Below, piece by piece: positions 13,773 through 50,598 of a stretch of DNA of 64,000 nt. Position 1 is the stretch's first letter. Each line of letters opens with the position of its first letter. Below the pieces are notes generated by a model. It was not told the origin of the DNA. It did no database searches and saw only the letters and a program-made list of their open reading frames with translations. The position numbers were made by a program, and so were the translations under genes. This DNA is from Gammaproteobacteria bacterium (lineage in GTDB: Bacteria; Pseudomonadota; Gammaproteobacteria; Eutrophobiales; Eutrophobiaceae), in assembly GCA_965200295.1 (NCBI GenBank), contig OZ241347.1, forward strand, positions 2,615,272 through 2,679,271, read 5' to 3'.

Positions 13773-16700
13773 ATGGCGAGAGACAGGCAAAATCCTGCGT
13801 GGCTTGCTGCCTTGTTGGCGGCATCGCTGCTCATCCTGACCAGCCTGCCTGCCCAAGTCCTGGCGCAGCAGGTGCTCGTCAGCAACCTCGGCCAAGCCGA
13901 CTTCGCCACCGCCAGCCCCATTGCCAGCTTGCTTGGCGTGTTCGATCACGCCCAGCAATTCACCACTGGCAGCAACAGCGCAGGCTACTGGCTGAGCAGC
14001 GTCGAGATTGAATTCGGCCGACTCGACGCCGGCTTCCCTTTTTCGGTGTCGATTCGCACCAATGCCAGCGGCTCGCCGGGAACAGTGGTGGGTACACTGG
14101 CGAATCCCTCCTACACCGCGTTCACCACCGACACGGTGCTGAAGTTCACGGCGGCGGGCGACGGCATCGCCCTTGCGGCCAGCACGTCGTATTTCCTCGT
14201 CCTCGACGTCACTAGCGACTCCGGCAGCAACTTCGCCACTTGGCGGGTCACCACCTCAATGAGCGAGGACAGCGGCGGCGCCAGCGGCTGGAGCATCGCC
14301 GATCTGCACCGCTTACGGCAGAACGTGGCTGACGCTGCATGGGTCAACAACGTAGTCACCTCCACCCTCAAGATCCGCATCAACGGCTCGGCCGTCACCC
14401 TCCCCACGGTCACCATCGCCCGCGTTGCCACGCCGGTCACCGAAGGCGCGGCTGCCCGCTTCACCGTCAGCCGCACGGGCGCGACCACGGGGGCGTTGGC
14501 GGTGCAAGTGTCGGTGTCCGAGAACAGTGCTGGCGGGCAGAACTTCGTGGCGTCAACCAACGAAGGCGCTAAATCAGTCAGCATTCCTATGGGTTCCGCA
14601 TCGGCGGTCTATTCCGTGGCGACCGTGGGCGATGCCATCGACGAGCCGGACGGCGCGGTGACCGTGACGCTGGCGAGCGGTTCCGGCTATACCGTCGGCA
14701 GCCCGTCAACGGCGAGCGTGATGGTCAACGACGACGACCTGCCGGTTGTCACCATTACCAGCGGTGCATCGTCGGTGACGGAGGGCACGGCGGCAAGCTT
14801 CACGGTGACCCGCGCCGGTCTGACGACGGCGGCGCTGACGGTGAACGTCAATGTCGCGGATGTCGCGGGCAGCGATTTCGTGGCGTCGGACGACGAAGGC
14901 GCGGACACGGTGACGATCCAGGCGGGACAAGCCTCGGCAGCCTACAGCGTCGCCACCGTGGCGGACAGAGTGGTTGAGGCGAGTGGAAATGTGATAGTTA
15001 CCGTATCGACGGGCACGGGCTATACCGTCGGTAGTCCGCCATCCGCGAACGTGATGGTTAACGACGACGATACCGCTGCCGTGCTCATCAACGGCGCGGA
15101 CAGCAACATCACGCTTTCAGTCGGCGAGGACGACGGCACCGCCACCTACACCATCCGGCTCGACAGTCAGCCGAGCCACAATGTCACGGTCACAGTGAGT
15201 TCGGCCAGCGAAAACACAGCCACCGTGAACAAGGCGGGCGGCTCGGCCGGCGAGACGCAGACGCTCACCTTCACGCCGAGCGGCACCGGCGCGTGGAATG
15301 TCGCGCAGACCATCACTATAACCGGTGTCAACAACACTAGCGACGATGCCAACAACCGGCGCACTTCGCTCATCACCCACACGGCGGCTTCGAGCGACGC
15401 CAATTACAGCGGCATCACCCCCATCCCGACCGTCACAGTCACGGTGACCGACGACGACACGCCCGAGTTGACCGTGTCGGCACAGGGCGGCGTCACAACC
15501 GTCAACGAGAACGGCGCCGCCGCGACGATCATCGTCACCTCGAATATTCAAGTCGACGGCTCAATCGACTACGGCCAGCCGAGCGTGTCCACGGGCGGCG
15601 CCGTCAGTGCCGACGGAACGACTATTGCTGGCGGCAACACGAGCAACACCTATACCGTCAGCGCGAGCGACAACAACCGCGACGAGGCCGACTGGTCGAT
15701 CACCACCGGCATTGCCGCCGGCACTGGCTACACACTCGGCTCGCCGAGCGCCGTCATGCTCACTGTTCGCGACGACGACCCGACGGTCGTCTCGCTCGCT
15801 GGCGGTGGCCGCGTGTTCGAAGGCGAGGGGACGACATTCACGGTCACGCTTGGTCGCGACCTCGCCGCCGGCGAGATCATTGACGTGCCGCTGGCCATCA
15901 CCGGTGCTGGCATCACCCCGAGCGACTGGCGTTTGGCGCTTGCGAGCGGCATGGGTCTCAACACAGGCGTGACGCTGAATGGCGCCAACACAGCCACGCC
16001 GCAGCTTCGCTTCGCAGGCGCCGGCGCGCGCACGGCGACGCTGACGCTGACCGCCGAGGCGAGTAGCGGCGGCAAGACAATACGAGTGGAGCTAGGACCG
16101 GATGGCAGCGGCGCCAACGGGTTTGATCGCAGCGGTCTTGGCACCAACGTCGGCGGCGGCGCGGACCCGCACGCCACGGCTCTTCGAATCATGCTGGTGG
16201 TCACTGCCGATACCGTCGTCAACGACCGCGACTTCCTCGCTTTTGTGCGTGCCCCTGGCGAAACATCGGCATCCAGGCGGACTGAAGGCTCGCGTCTGAC
16301 GCTGTCCGTCCACCGTATCGCCTTCACGTCCGACAACAACAACCTGCACACGCCAGACGACTGGGGGTTCCGGCTCTGCTTCACCGGCGCCGCGACGCCC
16401 GGCGCGGACTTTTCGGTCAGCCACGGCGGCGGGCGCACATCGCTCGATCAAGAGGGCTGCACACGGACGAACAGCGCGGAGGACGGCACCGCGTTGCCCG
16501 CGCGACTGAGCGTCGCGCGCTTCTACATCAAGCTCTTGCACGACGATTTGGACGAGAGCGATGAGCGCGTTGTCGCGACCTTGACGCGAACGATTAACAC
16601 CGGGGTTTCCGGGCAAGGATTGAGTGAGTTTCGCTTCACCATCAGCGAGCCGCCCCTGATCGACAAGGTGCGCCACTACACCAGTGAAATTTGGCGCGGC

Positions 16701-19568
16701 TACGATCATGTCCTGCGTTGGCAGCGTGTGCTCTTTGCGCTCAGCGACGGCAGCGAAGGCGAAGGCCCGGCCATGACCGCAACCGAGGCGCAAGACTATG
16801 CGAATCGCGGCATGACCCGCTGGGCGCCAGTGGCGGCGGCGCTCTCACCGCTGCAGACGCAATCGGCAAGCCCACAGGGTGAGGGCAGCGAGGCAAGCTC
16901 ACAGGATGAGGATAGCGAGGCAAGCTCACAGGATGAGGATAGCGAGGCAAGCTCACAGGATGAGGATAGCGAGGCAAGCTCACAGGATGAGGATAGCGAG
17001 GCAAGCTCACAGGATGAGGATAGCGAGGCAAGCCCGCAGAGTGAGGGCAACGAGGTAACCCCGGATAGCGAGACCGAGGGTGAGGCGCCCGCAGACGATG
17101 ATGTGCAGGGTGACGCGCCTTCGGATAGCGAAGCGCCGGTCGAGCCGGTTGCAGCAGAGGACACGTTCGTGCCGGATGCCGCGCTGGTCGCGAACATCCG
17201 TGCCTGGCGCAGCGAGACCCAGCACGGTCAGGCGCATGTGGATCGGTGGACGCGGGTGCTGATCGCGTTCAAAGTAGAAACCGGTAGCCTCGCGCCGATG
17301 AGTGCGGCCGAGGCGCAGACATACCTCGACAAAGGCTGGACGCGCTGGGAACCCGTGGTGACGGCGCTTAAGTCGATGCAAGCTGACACGCAGCAAGCGG
17401 CCGCCTCGGAGCAGAACGACACGCAAGCGACTACCGAGCAAGACGAGGCGCCGCAAGCCACAGACGAGGAGAACGAACCCGCGCCCACAGAGCAGGACGA
17501 AGCGCCAGCGGCCGAGGACGAGCAGGACGAGCCCGTGACCATGGCACAGGGCGATGAACCCGCCCCCACCCCGGCATTGTCGGTCTCGGATGCGAGCGGC
17601 GCAGAAGGTTCGACCATAAAGTTCACCATCACGCTTGCCCCGGCCGCAACAGACACCGTGAGCGTGTGGGTGTCCACCAGAGAGTCGCAGCCGGTGTCCG
17701 CGCATAAGAACAGGGACTACCAGCACAACGGCGAGTGGCTGACGTTCAAGCCCGGCGAGACCCGGCAGCACCACCGGGTTTACACCCTTGACGATGCGCA
17801 CGACGACTCGGGAGAAACTTTCGAGCTGGTACTGTCACAGGCGCGTGGCGCGGTGATCGCCGATGCAGTAGGTGTGGGCACGATCATGAACGACGACCCA
17901 CTGCCGGCGGCCCACCTCGCACGGTTCGGACGCACCGTGGCCGAGCACGCGCTCGGCGGCATCGCCGGGCGCTTGGAGGCACCGCGCGCGCCGGGGCTGC
18001 GCGGTGTGTTTGCCGGCCGGGCATTCAGCGCGGCGCCGGGGAGTAAGACCGGCCACCGGCGGCGTAGCGGGGGGGGTACCGGCGCGCCGAACGGGCTCGA
18101 TGGCTTCCATACCCCCGGCGGGGGCGTCGGCGTGAACCCATCGTCGAGACGATCAGCCTTGGCGGGCGACCTCCATTCAGCCGTTGCTCAGTCACTCGAT
18201 GCCCAATCATTTGATACCCAGTCACCCGACGCTGGCGCCTCCATGACCGCGCGTGCAGTACTGTTAGGGTCGAGCTTCACGCTGACCCGGGCCGCCGACG
18301 GCGCCGGCGGCAGTCTGGCTTTCTGGGGCCGCGCCGCGCAAAGTCACTTTGACGGCGTTGACCGCGGCCACGGTACCGATGTGACTCTCAACGGTAAGGT
18401 CACCACCGCCATGCTGGGCGCCGACTACGCCCGGGGCGACTGGCTCGTCGGCCTGGCGCTGACCGAGACCGCGTCCACAGGCGGCTATAGCGCCGCCGCC
18501 GGTAATCCCTGTATGGGTGAGATCGGAGCCGGGGCTATGGCCGATACTATGGACAGCCCCCCGGAATTGTGCGCTACGGACGGCCCTGGCGCTGCGGCTG
18601 GTCTCGGTGCTACGGCAGGCCTGGGCGCCGGTGAGGTAGAGTCTTCCCTGACGGCCGTCATTCCCTACGCCACGCGCCGGGTCGCCGAGCGGCTGACATT
18701 GTGGGGCGCCACCGGCTATGGCCGAGGCGCAGTGACACTGACGCCGGGCGCCGGTGAAACCCTCACCGGCGACGCCCCCCTCAGTGCTGACACCGACTTT
18801 ACCCTGGCCGCGGTAGGCCTGCGCGGTGACCTGCTCGCTCCCGTCGGATTCGGGCCGGCGCTGGCGCTCACCTCCGATGCCCTGTGGACGCGTACGACCT
18901 CAGCGGGGACGCACGGCCTCCTGGCCTCAGCATCCGCCGTGACCCGGCTGCGGCTGGGTCTGGAGGGCAGCTGGGCGCTGGACTTTGCCGGCGCCCGGCG
19001 TGTTACGCCGACGCTGGCCGTCGGCGCCCGCCACGACGGTGGCGACGCCGAGACCGGCTTTGGTATTGAGCTTGGCGGTGGCGTGCAGTGGATCGAGCCG
19101 CGCCTCGGCCTGACGCTCGACATCTCGGCCCGCACGCTGCTGGCGCATGGAGATGACGACATCAAAGACCGGGGCGTCTCCGCGGCGCTGACCTTCGACC
19201 CGGCGCCGGGGACGCCCTTCGGCCCCCGGCTCAGCCTGCGCCAGGACTTCGGTGGGCCGGCTCAGGGCGGCCTTGATGCACTGTTCCGACCGGAGACGCC
19301 GCAGCCGCGGCACGGCGCTCATGACGCCGCCCGTTGGACGCTGGAGGCGGACTACGGCCTGCCCGCCTTGCAGGGGCGCTTCAGCGCCCGCCCGCTGGCC
19401 GGTATCGGACGCGCCGGCGGGGTGCAGGACTACCACCTCGGCTGGCAGTTGACGCCGGCGGCGGCGCACGCCCCCGACATCTCTTTCAGTGCACGCGCAG
19501 TGCGGCGTGTACCGGCGCGGGCCGCGGCTGAACATGGGATTGAACTCAGGCTCAACTGGCAGTGGTAG
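13773..19568 (+). CDS. giant (1931 aa) surface protein: signal peptide, N-terminal domain, five or more Calx-beta-like ~110-aa repeats, duplicated unknown domain, acidic 9-aa tandem tract, C-terminal autotransporter beta-barrel
   Basis: repeats ending in VNDDD with TEG...F.V.R motifs (Calx-beta-like); C-terminal ~300 aa with alternating beta-strand pattern ending LRLNWQW (type Va translocator signature). Confidence 0.8.
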   Translation: MARDRQNPAWLAALLAASLLILTSLPAQVLAQQVLVSNLGQADFATASPIASLLGVFDHAQQFTTGSNSAGYWLSSVEIEFGRLDAGFPFSVSIRTNASGSPGTVVGTLANPSYTAFTTDTVLKFTAAGDGIALAASTSYFLVLDVTSDSGSNFATWRVTTSMSEDSGGASGWSIADLHRLRQNVADAAWVNNVVTSTLKIRINGSAVTLPTVTIARVATPVTEGAAARFTVSRTGATTGALAVQVSVSENSAGGQNFVASTNEGAKSVSIPMGSASAVYSVATVGDAIDEPDGAVTVTLASGSGYTVGSPSTASVMVNDDDLPVVTITSGASSVTEGTAASFTVTRAGLTTAALTVNVNVADVAGSDFVASDDEGADTVTIQAGQASAAYSVATVADRVVEASGNVIVTVSTGTGYTVGSPPSANVMVNDDDTAAVLINGADSNITLSVGEDDGTATYTIRLDSQPSHNVTVTVSSASENTATVNKAGGSAGETQTLTFTPSGTGAWNVAQTITITGVNNTSDDANNRRTSLITHTAASSDANYSGITPIPTVTVTVTDDDTPELTVSAQGGVTTVNENGAAATIIVTSNIQVDGSIDYGQPSVSTGGAVSADGTTIAGGNTSNTYTVSASDNNRDEADWSITTGIAAGTGYTLGSPSAVMLTVRDDDPTVVSLAGGGRVFEGEGTTFTVTLGRDLAAGEIIDVPLAITGAGITPSDWRLALASGMGLNTGVTLNGANTATPQLRFAGAGARTATLTLTAEASSGGKTIRVELGPDGSGANGFDRSGLGTNVGGGADPHATALRIMLVVTADTVVNDRDFLAFVRAPGETSASRRTEGSRLTLSVHRIAFTSDNNNLHTPDDWGFRLCFTGAATPGADFSVSHGGGRTSLDQEGCTRTNSAEDGTALPARLSVARFYIKLLHDDLDESDERVVATLTRTINTGVSGQGLSEFRFTISEPPLIDKVRHYTSEIWRGYDHVLRWQRVLFALSDGSEGEGPAMTATEAQDYANRGMTRWAPVAAALSPLQTQSASPQGEGSEASSQDEDSEASSQDEDSEASSQDEDSEASSQDEDSEASSQDEDSEASPQSEGNEVTPDSETEGEAPADDDVQGDAPSDSEAPVEPVAAEDTFVPDAALVANIRAWRSETQHGQAHVDRWTRVLIAFKVETGSLAPMSAAEAQTYLDKGWTRWEPVVTALKSMQADTQQAAASEQNDTQATTEQDEAPQATDEENEPAPTEQDEAPAAEDEQDEPVTMAQGDEPAPTPALSVSDASGAEGSTIKFTITLAPAATDTVSVWVSTRESQPVSAHKNRDYQHNGEWLTFKPGETRQHHRVYTLDDAHDDSGETFELVLSQARGAVIADAVGVGTIMNDDPLPAAHLARFGRTVAEHALGGIAGRLEAPRAPGLRGVFAGRAFSAAPGSKTGHRRRSGGGTGAPNGLDGFHTPGGGVGVNPSSRRSALAGDLHSAVAQSLDAQSFDTQSPDAGASMTARAVLLGSSFTLTRAADGAGGSLAFWGRAAQSHFDGVDRGHGTDVTLNGKVTTAMLGADYARGDWLVGLALTETASTGGYSAAAGNPCMGEIGAGAMADTMDSPPELCATDGPGAAAGLGATAGLGAGEVESSLTAVIPYATRRVAERLTLWGATGYGRGAVTLTPGAGETLTGDAPLSADTDFTLAAVGLRGDLLAPVGFGPALALTSDALWTRTTSAGTHGLLASASAVTRLRLGLEGSWALDFAGARRVTPTLAVGARHDGGDAETGFGIELGGGVQWIEPRLGLTLDISARTLLAHGDDDIKDRGVSAALTFDPAPGTPFGPRLSLRQDFGGPAQGGLDALFRPETPQPRHGAHDAARWTLEADYGLPALQGRFSARPLAGIGRAGGVQDYHLGWQLTPAAAHAPDISFSARAVRRVPARAAAEHGIELRLNWQW
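16880..17040. repeat. perfect 27-bp tandem repeat x5 (caggatgaggatagcgaggcaagctca) encoding (SSQDEDSEA)n inside the giant gene
   Basis: seen directly; in-frame acidic low-complexity linker. Confidence 0.9.
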
Positions 19569-45732: not shown

Positions 45733-46404
45733 TTAGCGTTCCTGGCCGGCGAATACCGCCAGCAGGTGCAGCAGGCTGGTGAACAGGTTGAAGATGGCCA
45801 CGTACAAGGTGATCGTTGCCATGATGTAGTTGGTTTCACCGCCGTGGATCATTGCGCTGGTCTGATACAGGATCATGCCGGACATCAGCAGAATAAAGAT
45901 GGCCGATACCGCCAGCGCCATGGCTGGAATGCTGAAAATGGCGGCGCCGATACCGAGCAGGAACGCCACCAGTATCCCCACCATGAGGAACCCGCCCATG
46001 AAGCTGAAGTCCTTGCGGGTGGTCAGGGCATAACCCGACAGGCCAAGAAAGATCATGCCGGTGCCGCCCAGAGCCAGCATCACCAGTTGTCCGCCATTAC
46101 TGAAGAACTGCAAATACGCGTTCAGGAATGGCCCTAAGGTCAGCCCCATGAAACCGGTCAGGGCAAACACTGCGGCCAGCCCCCAGACGCTGTTTCTCAG
46201 TGCGGAGGTCAGGAACAACAGGCCAAAATAACCGCCCAGAGTGATGAGCAAACCCATACTGGGCAGATTCATGGCCATAGCCACAGCCGCCGTCAGCGCG
46301 CTGAACAGCAAGGTCATGGATAGCAGGATATAAGTGTTACGGATCAGCTTGTTGGTAGCCAGCGCCGACGGCGCCGGACTCGCGACTGCATACTGTTGAC
46401 TCAT
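45733..46404 (-). CDS. Bax-inhibitor-1/YccA-family membrane protein
   Basis: 223 aa; seven TM helices; BI-1 family pattern. Confidence 0.8.
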   Translation of the reverse strand: MSQQYAVASPAPSALATNKLIRNTYILLSMTLLFSALTAAVAMAMNLPSMGLLITLGGYFGLLFLTSALRNSVWGLAAVFALTGFMGLTLGPFLNAYLQFFSNGGQLVMLALGGTGMIFLGLSGYALTTRKDFSFMGGFLMVGILVAFLLGIGAAIFSIPAMALAVSAIFILLMSGMILYQTSAMIHGGETNYIMATITLYVAIFNLFTSLLHLLAVFAGQER

Positions 46405-46499
46405 TACAAACCTCCGATGGTTATGGTGACAATATGAATCATAGGGGCAATGGTGTTACTTTTCAAGATATTTCGGATAAAATGAGGTTTGTGCTGAAC

Positions 46500-46964
46500 G
46501 GAGAGGTGGCAGAGCGGTTGACAAATTCGCCGGGAGCGAATTTGGACAGCGTAGCTGGCCCCGCAGGGGTGACCTACATGGAGGTAGGTCACAGTGCACC
46601 GGGAACCGGTGCGTAGGTACTTGATGAGCTGATGAAGGATCGACAACTCCGAACGGAGAGGTGGCAGAGCGGTTGACAAATTCGCCGGGAGCGAATTTGG
46701 ACAGCGTAGCTGGCCCCGCAGGGGTGACCTACATGGAGGTAGGTCACAGTGCACCGGGAACCGGTGCGTAGGTACTTGATGAGCTGATGAAGGATCGACA
46801 ACTCCGAACGGAGAGGTGGCAGAGCGGTTGACAAATTCGCCGGGAGCGAATTTGGACAGCGTAGCTGGCCCCGCAGGGGTGACCTACATGGAGGTAGGTC
46901 ACAGTGCACCGGGAACCGGTGCGTAGGTACTTGATGAGCTGATGAAGGATCGACAACTCCGAAC
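46500..46964 (+). repeat. three perfect tandem copies of a 155-bp unit, each starting with the first 22 nt of tRNA-Ser (GGAGAGGTGGCAGAGCGGTTGA) followed by 133 nt of hairpin-rich sequence
   Basis: period 155 bp; the copies are identical; the fourth (partial) copy is the 5-prime end of the intact tRNA at 46965. Confidence 0.9.
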
Positions 46965-47055
46965 GGAGAGGTGGCAGAGCGGTTGAATGCACCGGTCTTG
47001 AAAACCGGCAAGGGTTGATAGCCCTTCGTGGGTTCGAATCCCACCCTCTCCGCCA
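46965..47055 (+). tRNA. tRNA-Ser (anticodon UGA), class II with long variable arm
   Basis: cloverleaf: acceptor GGAGAGG/CCUCUCC; anticodon loop CUUGAAA; T-loop GGTTCGAATCC; encoded CCA. Confidence 0.9.
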
Positions 47056-47067
47056 ATAACAACCATG

Positions 47068-47100
47068 AACAAGGGCGGTCATTGTGCCGCCCTTGTTTGG
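47068..47100. terminator. GC-rich hairpin (aacaagggcgg-N8-ccgcccttgtt) followed by TTTGGTTGG
   Basis: intrinsic-terminator-like; lies between the tRNA and the convergent Cys-rich gene. Confidence 0.45.
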
Positions 47101-47174
47101 TTGGGGTTGGTTGCGTTCATTGCAATAACGAATCTGTTTTGAGGGACGATCCGAAGACCGCCCCGGTGCGTCCG

Positions 47175-48098
47175 TCAATCACACCCATAGCCATTGTACT
47201 GGACCTCGAAGATCGCGCGTGGGTTGTTCACGACCCGGTAGTGCTGCGTGTTGTCGCGTAAGTTCACGGCGGTTGGCAGAGTCCAACCATATCCATAATT
47301 AGGGGTCGTATCACAGATCGGATCGCTGATTCTGTTCGGCACCGAATTGCACCATGGGCGGCCTGAGTTGACAGGTCCACTTACCGTACAACCATCCTGC
47401 CACGTATACGTCTCCGCGCCCGGCGCCTGGACACGCACCCGGCAATTTACTTCTTTGTTCGTTATAAAAGTGCACCACGCACCAGTGGCGTTACTGGGTG
47501 GGGTGGGGCAGCAATCATGCCCATTGCACTCGGTCTCCACTTTTCTGCCGGCCCCCGTAAACACCCCCCGCTGCGACGAGATCGCCGTCCCGCCCGGAGC
47601 GCCCCGGCAGTCGCTGCAGGAGGTCAGGAGGCTGACCCGGATCACCCGTCGTTCGGATACCGGCATGGGCGCGTAAGAAGATGCCTTCTGCCTGAAACGG
47701 ATGATGTTGTCCCCTTTTCGGAATGTCACTTTTGCCTGCCCATTGGCCAAATTCGCCCCATCAACAAACACGCCGCCGCCGACATTGTACTCTATAACGT
47801 CGTGGGGGCTGAACTGGAGCCGCGCCTGTGCCCAACCGTCCGTGTAGTCCGATCCCGGTTCAAAGAACCCGCCCCACGCCTCGACATTCACCGCCGATTC
47901 CGTGCTGGGCATTCCCGGATCGCAGGCGTCCAGAACCTGCGGCCCCTTGTATTCGAGCCAGATTTTCGCCTGGCCCTGTGTGTTCTGAGAGGTGGCCCAC
48001 ACCGGCGCGGCCATCACCGTCGCCACCAGCGCGGCGGTTACTGCGGCTAATTTAGCAAGGGGGGGGGGGGGGGGGGGGGGGGTAAGTAAGTGTTTCAT
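47175..48098 (-). CDS. secreted cysteine-rich protein of unknown function with a poly-Pro stretch in the signal-peptide region
   Basis: 307 aa; MKHLLT-P7-LAKLAAVTAALVATVMAAPVWA signal; ~20 Cys; no recognisable family. Confidence 0.55.
   Translation of the reverse strand: MKHLLTPPPPPPPLAKLAAVTAALVATVMAAPVWATSQNTQGQAKIWLEYKGPQVLDACDPGMPSTESAVNVEAWGGFFEPGSDYTDGWAQARLQFSPHDVIEYNVGGGVFVDGANLANGQAKVTFRKGDNIIRFRQKASSYAPMPVSERRVIRVSLLTSCSDCRGAPGGTAISSQRGVFTGAGRKVETECNGHDCCPTPPSNATGAWCTFITNKEVNCRVRVQAPGAETYTWQDGCTVSGPVNSGRPWCNSVPNRISDPICDTTPNYGYGWTLPTAVNLRDNTQHYRVVNNPRAIFEVQYNGYGCD
48059..48082. repeat. 24-nt G homopolymer (poly-C on the coding strand) within codons 6-14 of the Cys-rich protein gene
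   Basis: seen directly; encodes T-P7; slipped-strand contingency-locus candidate. Confidence 0.9.
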
Positions 48099-48306
48099 TG
48101 TTTTGCTCCTGTGTCAGGTTGATGCGGCCCGTTTATGCCATTTAAGGGCAGTTTGGGTCGCCGGGTCAGCAAAATAATCTTCGATGGCGCCCTCGGCACA
48201 GCCGTAAACTACCCTGTGCCCACGACAACGCCTTTCATGCTACACCTGACTCATCTTCAAAGCAAGCGTGAAACAAAACCTGATATTGCACATCAAAATT
48301 CTTTGA

Positions 48307-48576
48307 GTGCCGCTGGCGCGGGACGTGGAAGACTGCGCCTTATTGTTGTCGGTACTGGCCGGCCCGGATGCGCGCGACCCATGTTCACTGCCGGAAAGTG
48401 GCGGGCAGTTTAGCGCTGGCTTGCCGGCCGTTTCCGTGCCGGCCGGGTTCACTGCCAGCGGCCTGCCCGTCGATTCGCAGATCGTCGGCCCGCCCCGGGC
48501 CGATGCGGCGGTGCTGGGCGCGGCCCGTGTGTTTGAACAGGCCACCGGGTTCGGCAAATGGCGCCCGCAGTTGTGA
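48307..48576 (+). pseudogene. amidase (amidase-signature family) remnant: a mid-domain piece fused to the C-terminal end
   Basis: DVEDCALLLSVLAGPDARD and LPVDSQIVGPPRADAAVLGAARVFEQ match amidase internal and C-terminal regions; the N-terminal ~350 aa are absent. Confidence 0.5.
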
Positions 48577-48578
48577 AC

Positions 48579-49628
48579 TCAGCACCCGCCCAGGCCGAAC
48601 AACTGCACCAGGTCGCGGCGGTATTGAATGGAAAATTTATCCGCGGGGATGGAGACTTCGGCGGCGGGGTTGAGCGGCACCGGGTAGGGTCGCTGGCTTT
48701 CCACGACCACGATATCCTCGGCGTTGGTCACTAACTGGTATTGGGCGTAATCCTCCGTGGTGGCGCCGGGGATGTTGGTCAGCGAAATCTGGTAGATGGC
48801 GGTCTCGACCGCGCTCACAGGCGCGGCAATGTCATAGAAATGGCTGGTCATTTCCTCTGTGTAGTCAACCTTGAGGTCGGTGGCGAACGGGTAGGTCAGG
48901 TCGTGGCTGTAATAGACCTCGCGCTCACCGATGTTGTCGTCGTTAAACCCCCGTTCCACCTCGATATAGGGCAGTTCCATGTGCAGGCCATAATCGGTGC
49001 GCCGCAGCAGGTAATCGTCCAGTTGCGGGCGCTGCCGGTTGCCGAAGGTTTTCATGTGTACCCAGGACAGGTGCGCGATGTCGTTGAAGTTTTCGCAATG
49101 GCGGCTGGCGGAGGTCTGCCACAAGCCCTTTGGAATCTCAATTCTGAGCCAACTTGCATCGTGGTTTTCCAGCAGCGGCCATTCGGGCAACGGCCGCAGT
49201 GGTTTATCCTTAAGGCAGACCCAGAGCAGGCCGTAGCGTTGCACGGTCTGGTACCGGGTCAGACGCATCTGTGTCGGGATGAGCTGGTTCGGGTTGGTGT
49301 AAGACGGTATTCTGGTGCACGCGCCCAGATGGTCGTAGTGGTGACCATGGAACGGGCAGACCACATTGGCGCGGTCATCATCGAGCCAGCCCAGACTGAG
49401 CTTGGCGCCGCGATGGGGGCACTGGTCTTTGGCAACTGTTATGTCCTGTCGGGTTTTATAGATGACCAGGTCGGTATCCAGCAATCTGGCAGCCAGAGGC
49501 TCAGCGCCAATCTCCGAGACAAAGGCCAACGGATGCCAGAACCCGGCGAGGATGTGCCAATCGTGTTCCGCAATGGCGCTGTCAGCCGGGTAATCGGTGG
49601 TATTGGCTTGAGTTGTCGGCAGGTACAT
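48579..49628 (-). CDS. Rieske [2Fe-2S] non-heme-iron oxygenase, alpha-subunit type (pair A, long form)
   Basis: Rieske CPHRG...CPFHGH; mononuclear Fe motif NFNDIAHLSWVH; 349 aa. Confidence 0.85.
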   Translation of the reverse strand: MYLPTTQANTTDYPADSAIAEHDWHILAGFWHPLAFVSEIGAEPLAARLLDTDLVIYKTRQDITVAKDQCPHRGAKLSLGWLDDDRANVVCPFHGHHYDHLGACTRIPSYTNPNQLIPTQMRLTRYQTVQRYGLLWVCLKDKPLRPLPEWPLLENHDASWLRIEIPKGLWQTSASRHCENFNDIAHLSWVHMKTFGNRQRPQLDDYLLRRTDYGLHMELPYIEVERGFNDDNIGEREVYYSHDLTYPFATDLKVDYTEEMTSHFYDIAAPVSAVETAIYQISLTNIPGATTEDYAQYQLVTNAEDIVVVESQRPYPVPLNPAAEVSIPADKFSIQYRRDLVQLFGLGGC

Positions 49629-49629
49629 G

Positions 49630-50598
49630 TCAATCTACTCCAAAATCCATGCCCAAGGCTTTGAGGTGGCGGCGATATTTTGAGGTGAACAGGTCAGAAC
49701 GCAGGTGTAGTTCCTCGCTTAAGTCCATGGGCAATAATTCCGGTCGCTGGGATTCCAGGATGGGGATGTCCTGACCGATGATCAGGTCGTGAAAGTCTTT
49801 GATGTCCTGCTCAGTCAAATCCGCCGCATAATTGTACGCGGCGATGAAGTGCGCCCAGGATTTAGTTTCACTTTCCGGCCTGACAGCGAACATCAGCACA
49901 AATTTCTCCTTATTGGCGCGCCCGCCGATGTGCTTGACGAAATAGACCGTCAACGGCGCCAGGATACCGAAGTCATACCAGGCATCGCCGCCTTTCCCGG
50001 TGCCGTCCGGATCGGGCTGGAAATAGCGTACATCCTTGACAAAAAAGCCGTCCTCATGTGCTTCCACCTGGTAATCATCAATGACCGCGTGGTCGCGCGC
50101 ACCCAATATGCCGTCGTGCAGAATGGGCGGGTGCGACAGATCCAGGAAGTTCTCCACCACCCGCGGCGCGGCGGCATTGATCTCGTAGGGACCGCAGGGG
50201 ATGACCCGGTAATCCGGGTCGTTGAACTGGGGCAAATCGGGCAATGGCCGGGTTGCATCACCCAGGTTGACCCAGATGAGGCCGGCATGTTCCTGCGCCT
50301 GATAGACTGCGGTCGCCCGGGCCTTGGCCGGTATTCTGAGATCAGGATGGGCGGGGATAAATTCACACTGGCCGTCCCGGTTGTATTCCCAGCCGTGATA
50401 AGCGCAACGCAAGCGGTTGTTGCAGACGCTGCCCAGGCTCAGCCTGACGCCGCGATGCACGCACAGGTCTTTCCAGGCGCAGACCTTGTCTCCCGCCCGC
50501 CACAGCACCAGGTCTTCGCCCAGCACGGTGGCTGGTTTGGGTTTGTCAGCGGCCAGGTCGCGGGCCAGACCTACCGGGTGCCAGTAGTGTTTAATCAT
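49630..50598 (-). CDS. Rieske [2Fe-2S] non-heme-iron oxygenase (pair A, short form)
   Basis: CVHRG...CAYHGW; ENFLDLSHPPILH; 322 aa; stop is 2 nt from the next gene start. Confidence 0.85.
   Translation of the reverse strand: MIKHYWHPVGLARDLAADKPKPATVLGEDLVLWRAGDKVCAWKDLCVHRGVRLSLGSVCNNRLRCAYHGWEYNRDGQCEFIPAHPDLRIPAKARATAVYQAQEHAGLIWVNLGDATRPLPDLPQFNDPDYRVIPCGPYEINAAAPRVVENFLDLSHPPILHDGILGARDHAVIDDYQVEAHEDGFFVKDVRYFQPDPDGTGKGGDAWYDFGILAPLTVYFVKHIGGRANKEKFVLMFAVRPESETKSWAHFIAAYNYAADLTEQDIKDFHDLIIGQDIPILESQRPELLPMDLSEELHLRSDLFTSKYRRHLKALGMDFGVD

Follow-up and report, generated by a model that had tools for sequence, protein, structure and literature searches.

A poly-C tract in the signal-peptide coding region of a mobile orphan gene: a probable contingency switch in uncultured marine Alpha- and Gammaproteobacteria

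The stretch of DNA under study (the "window") comprises 64,000 nucleotides (nt) of a genome assigned to the gammaproteobacterial family Eutrophobiaceae (GenBank assembly GCA_965200295.1, contig OZ241347.1, positions 2,615,272 to 2,679,271); coordinates given without a locus label refer to this window. On its minus strand lies an open reading frame (ORF) of 307 codons plus stop codon (47175..48098), which is in frame ("ON") as assembled and is predicted to encode an exported protein of an orphan family. The ATG start codon (48098-48096) is preceded, at a distance of 7 nt, by AGGAG (48106..48110, minus strand), which reads as a Shine-Dalgarno (SD)-like sequence; AGGAG, AAGGA or GGAGG occupies the same position in homologous loci. 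The gene begins with ATG AAA CAC TTA CTT ACC (CCC)7 CTT GCT AAA, translated as M-K-H-L-L-T-P7-L-A-K, and contains an uninterrupted run of exactly 24 cytosines on the coding strand (C24; G24 on the plus strand, 48059-48082), which extends from the last two bases of codon 6 to the first base of codon 14 and is proposed to act as a slipped-strand switch. An earlier note on this DNA, made from the sequence alone, had read the run as ACC-(CCC)7-C, encoding T6 and P7 to P13 of the 307-residue ORF, and this description agrees with the sequence in every detail.

A homopolymer of this length is far beyond chance, as had been claimed: the number of G24 runs expected from base composition is 2.7e-8, and the second-longest homopolymer of the window is a G8. 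All seven proline codons of the run are CCC, a codon that accounts for 36% of the proline codons in the long ORFs of the window. In the 185 kb of DNA examined, the sole other C/G run of at least 9 nt heads a neighbouring gene with the same leader, to which we return below. The exclusive use of CCC, the purity of the tract in all 12 loci that carry it and the near absence of runs of 9 nt or longer elsewhere mean that selection acts on the DNA and not on the peptide. Were the poly-proline to act at the peptide level, it might link synthesis with Sec targeting through an EF-P-dependent translational pause, or provide the n-region of the leader with a rigid spacer. Three or more consecutive prolines do stall ribosomes when EF-P is missing, and the run lies at the extreme N-terminus, where pausing alters initiation spacing; however, the proline run ranges in length from 2 to at least 7, is absent from functional-looking paralogues and is out of frame with the body of the gene in most alleles, and the codon usage, once more, points to DNA. 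We consider such a role barely conceivable.

The tract is predicted to sit in the n-region of a Sec-type signal peptide, 5' of the cleavage site. This signal peptide was called from inspection and hydropathy and spans residues 1-35 (47994..48098, minus strand). Its n-region, MKHLLT-P7-LAK, encloses the tract and carries the positive residues K2 and K16; the h-region, LAAVTAALVATVMAAPVW (residues 17-34), is the sole strongly hydrophobic stretch and is followed by V-W-A and, past the predicted cleavage site, T-S. Throughout the family, AAPVWA followed by (S)SQNTQGQAK is conserved. Evidence that the product is secreted or surface-located consists of this Sec-type leader, again as judged by inspection and hydropathy, 12 cysteines, and an immunoglobulin (Ig)-like domain resembling adhesin modules.

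Directly 3' of the tract, the sequence TTGCTAAATTAG (48047..48058, minus strand) contains TAA (48054-48052) and TAG (48049-48047), one stop codon for each of the two wrong frames. When tract lengths were varied in silico, the full precursor was obtained at 21, 24 and 27 nt; any other length within 20-28 nt yields a peptide of 14-17 amino acids, because TTGCTAAATTAG supplies TAA and TAG in the two wrong frames. Closure of both wrong frames 3-23 nt 3' of the tract was found in 9 of 11 loci.

The DNA of 14 loci was compared, namely the window and 13 others (L001 to L013), with assembly consensus sequences serving as evidence on tract lengths. A pure poly-C tract is present at the equivalent position in 12 of them, where it follows an SD-preceded start by 4-8 codons and precedes the conserved codons for EYKGPQVL by 100-126 nt; its length is 9, 10, 11, 12, 13, 14, 14, 15, 15, 18, 24 or 27. 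Four of these loci are ON: the window (C24), L005 (GCA_026709915, with 99% nucleotide identity to the window on one flank; C15), L002 (Pseudomonadales, an OZ chromosome-level record; C14) and L010 (ERZ25067984; C18). The remaining eight are out of frame ("OFF"), i.e., L006 (ERZ27276879, syntenic with the window on the other flank; C14), L001 (Arenicellales; C12), L007 (GCA_026709405, an Arenicellales locus; C11), L013 (a whole-genome shotgun contig of GCA_026709965.1; C13), L003 (Paracoccaceae; C10), L004 (Aestuariivita; C15), and L009 and L012 (both ERZ25067984; C9 and C27). In all eight OFF loci the body of the gene remains open over 865-892 nt. L008 and L011 are tract-less and have an ordinary MTRLMM or MKRLIT signal peptide.

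Length variation was observed in every allele type sampled more than once. Within one species-level allele, the window (C24) differs from L005 and from L006 by two substitutions each per 200 nt downstream of the tract and by 9-10 nt within it; between L005 (C15) and L006 (C14), there are no mismatches across 200 nt downstream, and the upstream flank of the three contains an indel. No difference separates L002 (C14) from L013 (C13) in the 200 nt that flank the tract on either side. Protein records extend the comparison: for the L002 allele, a P4 run in P0004 and P0047 (equivalent to C11) is found vs. P5 in P0046 and P0048, a third allele is represented by P0061 with P4 and P0063 with P5, and P0056 is the ON version of the L006 allele. 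The cross-strain comparison of tract lengths that the earlier note had proposed as a check has thus returned the same position, variable lengths, and both ON and OFF states in 12 of 14 loci.

In our judgement, C24 is probably a simple-sequence contingency switch inside the export leader that would be cleaved off a secreted or periplasmic protein. The slipped-strand reading, first put forward in the earlier note, is supported by the comparative evidence, that is, length polymorphism, ON and OFF alleles, and intact bodies. Position, purity and length polymorphism of the tract, intact ON and OFF alleles, flanking stop codons and the placement ahead of the predicted cleavage site are direct observations; the mechanism is proposed as follows. 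From what is known of homopolymer behaviour, slipped-strand mispairing during replication would add or remove C:G pairs. At a length of 24, or at any length that differs from it by a multiple of 3, translation from the SD-preceded ATG would proceed through the poly-proline into the signal peptide, and the 307-residue precursor would be made and exported, while at other lengths it would stop 2-3 codons past the tract at TAA or TAG, leaving, as in the in silico translations, a peptide of 14-17 amino acids and no protein. In-frame length changes would touch only the discarded leader, and the mature protein would stay unchanged because the signal-peptidase site is predicted to be located 3' of the tract. 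We infer that slippage within populations would be frequent and reversible and that the OFF state would abolish export.

The tract itself is not an artefact, since it is seen in independent assemblies, from different assemblers and from both short and long reads, assembler and read type being inferred from contig names (SPAdes-style NODE_, k141_ and ctg contigs, and OZ chromosomes). Its lengths could still mislead if the gene were constitutively in frame everywhere and the OFF states and 1-base differences were consensus errors at a homopolymer. C/G homopolymers longer than 10 are error-prone, and the caution voiced at the outset about sequencing error was justified in that 1-base differences between assemblies are indistinguishable from it; furthermore, several of the 1-nt contrasts lie between different assembler or read types by contig name (L002 vs. 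L013), and the contigs of L005 and L007 are broken at the gene or close to it. However, differences of 9-10 nt (24 vs. 15/14) and 3 nt (14 vs. 11) separate near-identical alleles and cannot be explained as consensus errors, an error in 8 of 12 consensus sequences is implausible, and the short tracts C9 and C10 are likewise out of frame. Technical error as the whole explanation is highly improbable.

Several further points weigh against a contingency switch as drawn above. The 1-nt differences (C15/C14, C14/C13, C12/C11) lie within homopolymer error, for long as well as short reads, and the frame state of any single assembly, including the ON state of the window, is uncertain. Alternative starts exist: L010 has an internal MKRL start 3' of the tract, translation of L001 from an ATG farther upstream, in a different frame, passes C12 in frame (P0050, 319 amino acids), and a second protein family described below (family B) has two alternative upstream starts; some OFF states may be leaky, or may be start-codon switches. 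A consensus scan found no promoter 5' of the window gene. Finally, the tract is absent from 2 of the 14 loci (L008 and L011) and from 11 of 56 proteins of the family to which the window protein belongs (family A); therefore, switching is not obligatory for this family.

When the 56 distinct family A proteins were sorted into classes by regular expressions, 16 had a leader with a proline run (P3-P7), 24 were N-truncated, 11 had a full leader with no run, and 5 were fragments. The N-truncated records begin at an internal Met or Val inside the signal peptide (e.g., "..MAAPVWA"). They are the response of gene callers to OFF tracts, as was verified for P0005, P0003, P0006, P0007, P0011, P0012 and P0039. 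The same annotation artefact spans families A and B (also P0071 and P0077), and the proteins so called look cytoplasmic.

The ratio of four ON to eight OFF loci corresponds to the expectation of unconstrained length drift and argues against a constitutively required gene. It could also be taken to signal decay, in which the tract is a hypermutable accident on a mobile cassette, a neutral hotspot, and the OFF copies are pseudogenes heading for loss. The majority of sampled copies being OFF fits this, as do the existence of tract-less paralogues and the accessory nature of an orphan gene that often lies near transposases, phage genes, or toxin-antitoxin or restriction-modification genes. Set against it, none of the eight OFF copies has a second lesion over ~870 nt, the tract is pure in 12 of 12 loci and has been retained through cross-class transfer and on a second gene family, and the placement ahead of the cleavage site together with the flanking stop codons looks like design. 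Decay on its own is very unlikely.

A different account locates the slippage in RNA or at the ribosome, where it would not be heritable; each allele would then produce mixed frames, and the length of the tract would set how much protein is made instead of turning the gene ON or OFF. Tracts of 9-27 nt equal or exceed the length of the RNA:DNA hybrid, and such slippage would account for an out-of-frame consensus being tolerated in 8 of 12 assemblies. A CCC-C close to the start codon is known to be prone to +1 shifts and is held in frame by m1G37 tRNA-Pro and EF-P, and in some endosymbionts transcriptional slippage rescues frameshifted genes. On the other side, immediate stop codons in both wrong frames would be purposeless if frames were mixed, and the 4:8 ratio of ON to OFF matches drift of length in the DNA; to our knowledge, most documented cases of productive transcriptional slippage involve A/T runs. 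We regard slippage of this kind as an unlikely sole explanation; it complements a switch in the DNA without replacing it and could add leakiness.

P0051, recorded for a contig of 3,519,297 bp that also encodes the paralogue P0062, has exactly the same sequence as the product of the window gene. Two figures given earlier need correction: the protein contains 12 cysteines and not ~20, and the GC content is 59.1% for the window and 60.4% for the gene, not 62%. That no family could be recognised holds true, as Pfam, PHROGs, NCBIfam and PDB sequence-profile searches with the window protein returned no match; for the Calx-beta and Ig-like adhesin families of Pfam, too, there was no significant sequence match. 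Among 5.8e9 proteins, 27 homologues were found, and a profile search of 1.84e9 representatives gave 13 matches, the large ones being spurious repeat matches. According to record titles, family A occurs in metagenome-assembled genomes (MAGs) of Arenicellales, Pseudomonadales, Paracoccaceae, Aestuariivita and unclassified Gammaproteobacteria. Searches of metagenome contigs, with a protein pattern and a conserved 32-mer, and of viral contigs gave no further loci.

The AlphaFold model, built on a 27-sequence alignment, is all-beta (pLDDT 77). It comprises a conserved N-terminal beta-sandwich domain (~residues 43-160; 47619..47972, minus strand), which is Ig-like or Calx-beta-like, and a Cys-rich C-terminal domain (residues 172-307; 47178..47585, minus strand), in which hypervariable and conserved segments form a mosaic that ends in the conserved ...VQYNGYGCD. 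Of the mature protein, for which structure prediction had been suggested at the outset, the N-domain is Ig-like, and the C-domain had no fold match. Against the viral structures of BFVD, there was no match at E <= 1e-3.

In a codon alignment of 10 diverse loci, conserved blocks (nucleotide identity of 0.77-0.96) alternate with hypervariable ones (0.49-0.62), and within the conserved blocks, identity at third positions of identical residues is 0.84-0.95. Such high synonymous identity between Alpha- and Gammaproteobacteria implies recent horizontal exchange or recombination. The sister contig L006, at the window's own locus, shares the N-domain of the window and differs from it in C-domain type (P0005, P0056). 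Since a conserved Ig-like N-domain is combined with a recombining, hypervariable Cys-rich C-domain, the switched product would fit the profile of a surface-interaction or target protein, the expression of which is sometimes costly, for example in phage or host recognition.

The genomic surroundings bear on how the gene moves. A tRNA-Ser(UGA) gene (46965..47055, plus strand) lies convergent to it, with its 3' end facing the 3' end of the gene, and the interval between them holds a terminator-like hairpin with an 11-bp stem (47068..47097, minus strand), which is kept in L007 (Arenicellales) and L006. An Rfam scan of 46300-48600, covering the gene, its 5' untranslated region and the flanks, matched the tRNA only. 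A perfect tandem array of 3.2 copies of a 155-nt unit (46496-46986, plus strand) adjoins and enters the 5' end of tRNA-Ser. The unit starts with the first ~22 nt of the tRNA, its RNA folds as three perfect hairpins (z = -4.2), and no Rfam family scored above threshold; the sister MAG represented by L005 has two units.

On the promoter side lies an amidase remnant of 89 amino acids (48307..48576, plus strand), whose syntenic counterpart in L006 is a weak match to PF01425 (Amidase); the remnant suggests that the cassette resides in a rearranged region. Two Rieske/VanA-type oxygenase genes (48579-50598, minus strand) come next, in the same arrangement as in L006. The segment between tRNA-Ser and the amidase remnant, from 47056 to ~48265, delimits the cassette. 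The match between L006 and the window extends from 52000 to 47051 and is lost there, within ~5 nt of the 3' end of the tRNA, and L005 diverges from the window at ~48265 upstream; both junctions lie near contig ends. In the Arenicellales loci, DNA homology to the window spans the tract to the terminator only.

No conserved partner gene was found among the loci. The neighbours include a DDE transposase directly upstream of the gene in L001, IS110 in L013, a phage portal gene in L008, and restriction-modification and SocA genes in L010. L012 is a contig of 20,278 bp (ERZ25067984, ctg12298_10x_c) with a phage-type primase (D5_N), a head-tail adaptor and a holin; going by its name suffix it is possibly circular, and it may be a small phage or satellite that carries the gene as a moron.

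The earlier note had taken the gene, the first one downstream of tRNA-Ser, as probably island-borne. This is supported only in part: horizontal movement is favoured by the cross-class identity, the mobile neighbours and the L006 junction; a classical tRNA-linked island was rejected. The 28-nt 3' end of tRNA-Ser occurs as a single copy in the window when up to 3 mismatches are allowed, so that there is no att duplicate, the GC profile from 42 to 54 kb shows no anomaly, and no integrase is present in the precomputed, partial Pfam lists for L005 and L006, which cover ~6-8 kb on each side and do not include the ORFs of the window. Because synonymous identity extends across classes, transposases and phage genes are neighbours and the hallmarks of an island are missing, the evidence points to a horizontally moving single-gene cassette.

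Two further features are recorded as side observations. A GC-rich hairpin lies directly 5' of the SD sequence in L001 (5925-5975; GCCCGCTGG...CCAGCGGGC), L002 (5975-6000), L009 (3905-3945) and L012 (3880-3925; GCCCGCCGG...CCGGCGGGC); it could terminate the preceding gene or have a regulatory role, and the window gene has no clear equivalent. Elsewhere in the window, an ORF of 1931 codons (13773-19568, plus strand) has a signal-peptide-like N-terminus, and its translation resembles a protein of the autotransporter type in which beta-sandwich modules are repeated. This ORF contains the G8 of the window (18069-18076) and a 27-nt tandem repeat (6.3 copies, 16865-17033) encoding SEASSQDED, the copy number of which could vary in frame.

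The second gene with a tract lies next to the family A gene in L009. There, a C11 (L009 2961-2971) is located 13 nt past the ATG of the gene for P0069 (264 amino acids; L009:2948-3742, plus strand), which shares with family A the arrangement of start, poly-C and homologous signal peptide, and whose leader DNA aligns with family A leaders. The mature part of P0069 gives a BLASTP E value of 0.47 against family A, and profile-profile alignment of the two families with hhalign matches 24 leader columns only (E = 2e-8). Remote homology between the mature parts of families A and B was rejected on these grounds.

Family B has 26 homologues in the same taxa as family A, one of which, P0081, is encoded on the source contig of the window, outside the window. 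Of 75 family B sequences, 26 carry a P2-P6 run in the leader and 31 have been called with a truncated N-terminus, and one-proline differences occur inside clusters of 90% identity. Leaders common to both families include MNGPTLSP(n)GFRGSDMKR..., ..TP(n)LAKLAA.. and MKRLITP(n)... Leader and switch thus appear to be a module common to at least two unrelated families of secreted proteins. A broader reading, which we put forward tentatively and rate at slightly short of even, is that of a portable phase-variable export leader. Recombination would have placed it ahead of at least two unrelated families of small secreted proteins with cysteines, and together with these genes it would circulate within one marine, possibly sponge-associated community, in Alpha- and Gammaproteobacteria as well as in phage-like elements. 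The sponge association is suspected, and not claimed, from co-occurrence of the taxa in the literature and from the MAG naming; a literature search for the names of the MAGs returned nothing.

A homopolymer switch in a signal-peptide coding region is an already known mechanism; the extensions described here are the mobility across classes and the shared leader. By analogy of design, the closest counterpart is the poly-G tract in the signal-peptide region of pilC in Neisseria. Phase-variable genes of Neisseria have genic G or C tracts of 9-21 (PMC5953494), and the pilC tract lies inside the signal-peptide sequence (PMC13017665). As in pilC1 and pilC2 of N. gonorrhoeae and N. meningitidis, a genic G/C homopolymer is placed in the signal peptide of an exported, surface-acting protein; frameshifts in pilC lead to ON/OFF expression, and the pilC lengths of 9-20 overlap with those of 9-27 reported here (PMC13017665, PMC5953494). 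In contrast, PilC is a pilus tip adhesin of ~110 kDa, whereas the present protein is an unrelated 29-kDa orphan; the hosts are uncultured marine Alpha- and Gammaproteobacteria and not a human pathogen; and the tract has travelled across classes along with its gene and is found at the head of two unrelated families. Switching is, moreover, read here from sequence alone.

The opa genes of Neisseria offer a second parallel, in that they form a multigene family in which repeat number sets the frame and leaves the mature protein unchanged, and in which hypervariable regions are shuffled by recombination. The opa repeat (CTCTT/CTTCT pentamers) sits in the coding region of the leader peptide. Copy numbers of 7-21 are on record for the genic opa repeat CTTCT (PMC5953494). 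Unlike in the present family, the repeat is a pentamer, and the Opa proteins are beta-barrel outer-membrane proteins of one genus. Poly-G/C tracts of at least 8 are also found in Campylobacter jejuni, Haemophilus influenzae, Helicobacter pylori and Bordetella, in the 5' coding regions of genes for surface or secreted structures, where they are polymorphic between and within strains. Those loci belong to cultured, host-adapted pathogens with measured switching rates, whereas the evidence here is comparative. C24 to C27 lie at the long end of known homopolymeric contingency tracts. In the vlp genes of Mycoplasma (e.g., M. hyorhinis), a conserved 5' module of homopolymer switch and signal peptide is joined to divergent mature regions, and a conserved switch and leader are likewise shared by families A and B. 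The vlp poly-A, however, lies in the promoter and acts on transcription, and vlp genes constitute one family of repeat-rich lipoproteins with no cross-class transfer.

What is known of phase variation by homopolymer slippage comes almost wholly from cultured, host-adapted pathogens. The same design, with the tract in the part of the leader that is cleaved off and a stop codon in each wrong frame, is met here in MAGs of uncultured marine bacteria from two proteobacterial classes, on an orphan secreted protein that is both mobile and mosaic. In databases, it has left a systematic annotation error, with many family members called from an internal Met and their signal peptide lost. Read-level spectra of tract lengths in existing metagenomes offer a handle on the proteins that these bacteria hide or show. 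The occurrence of one leader ahead of two families suggests that unrelated genes can exchange a switch carried in the leader; if the leader is indeed portable, it would constitute a contingency system shared at the level of a community of uncultured symbionts and not the private trait of one pathogen lineage.

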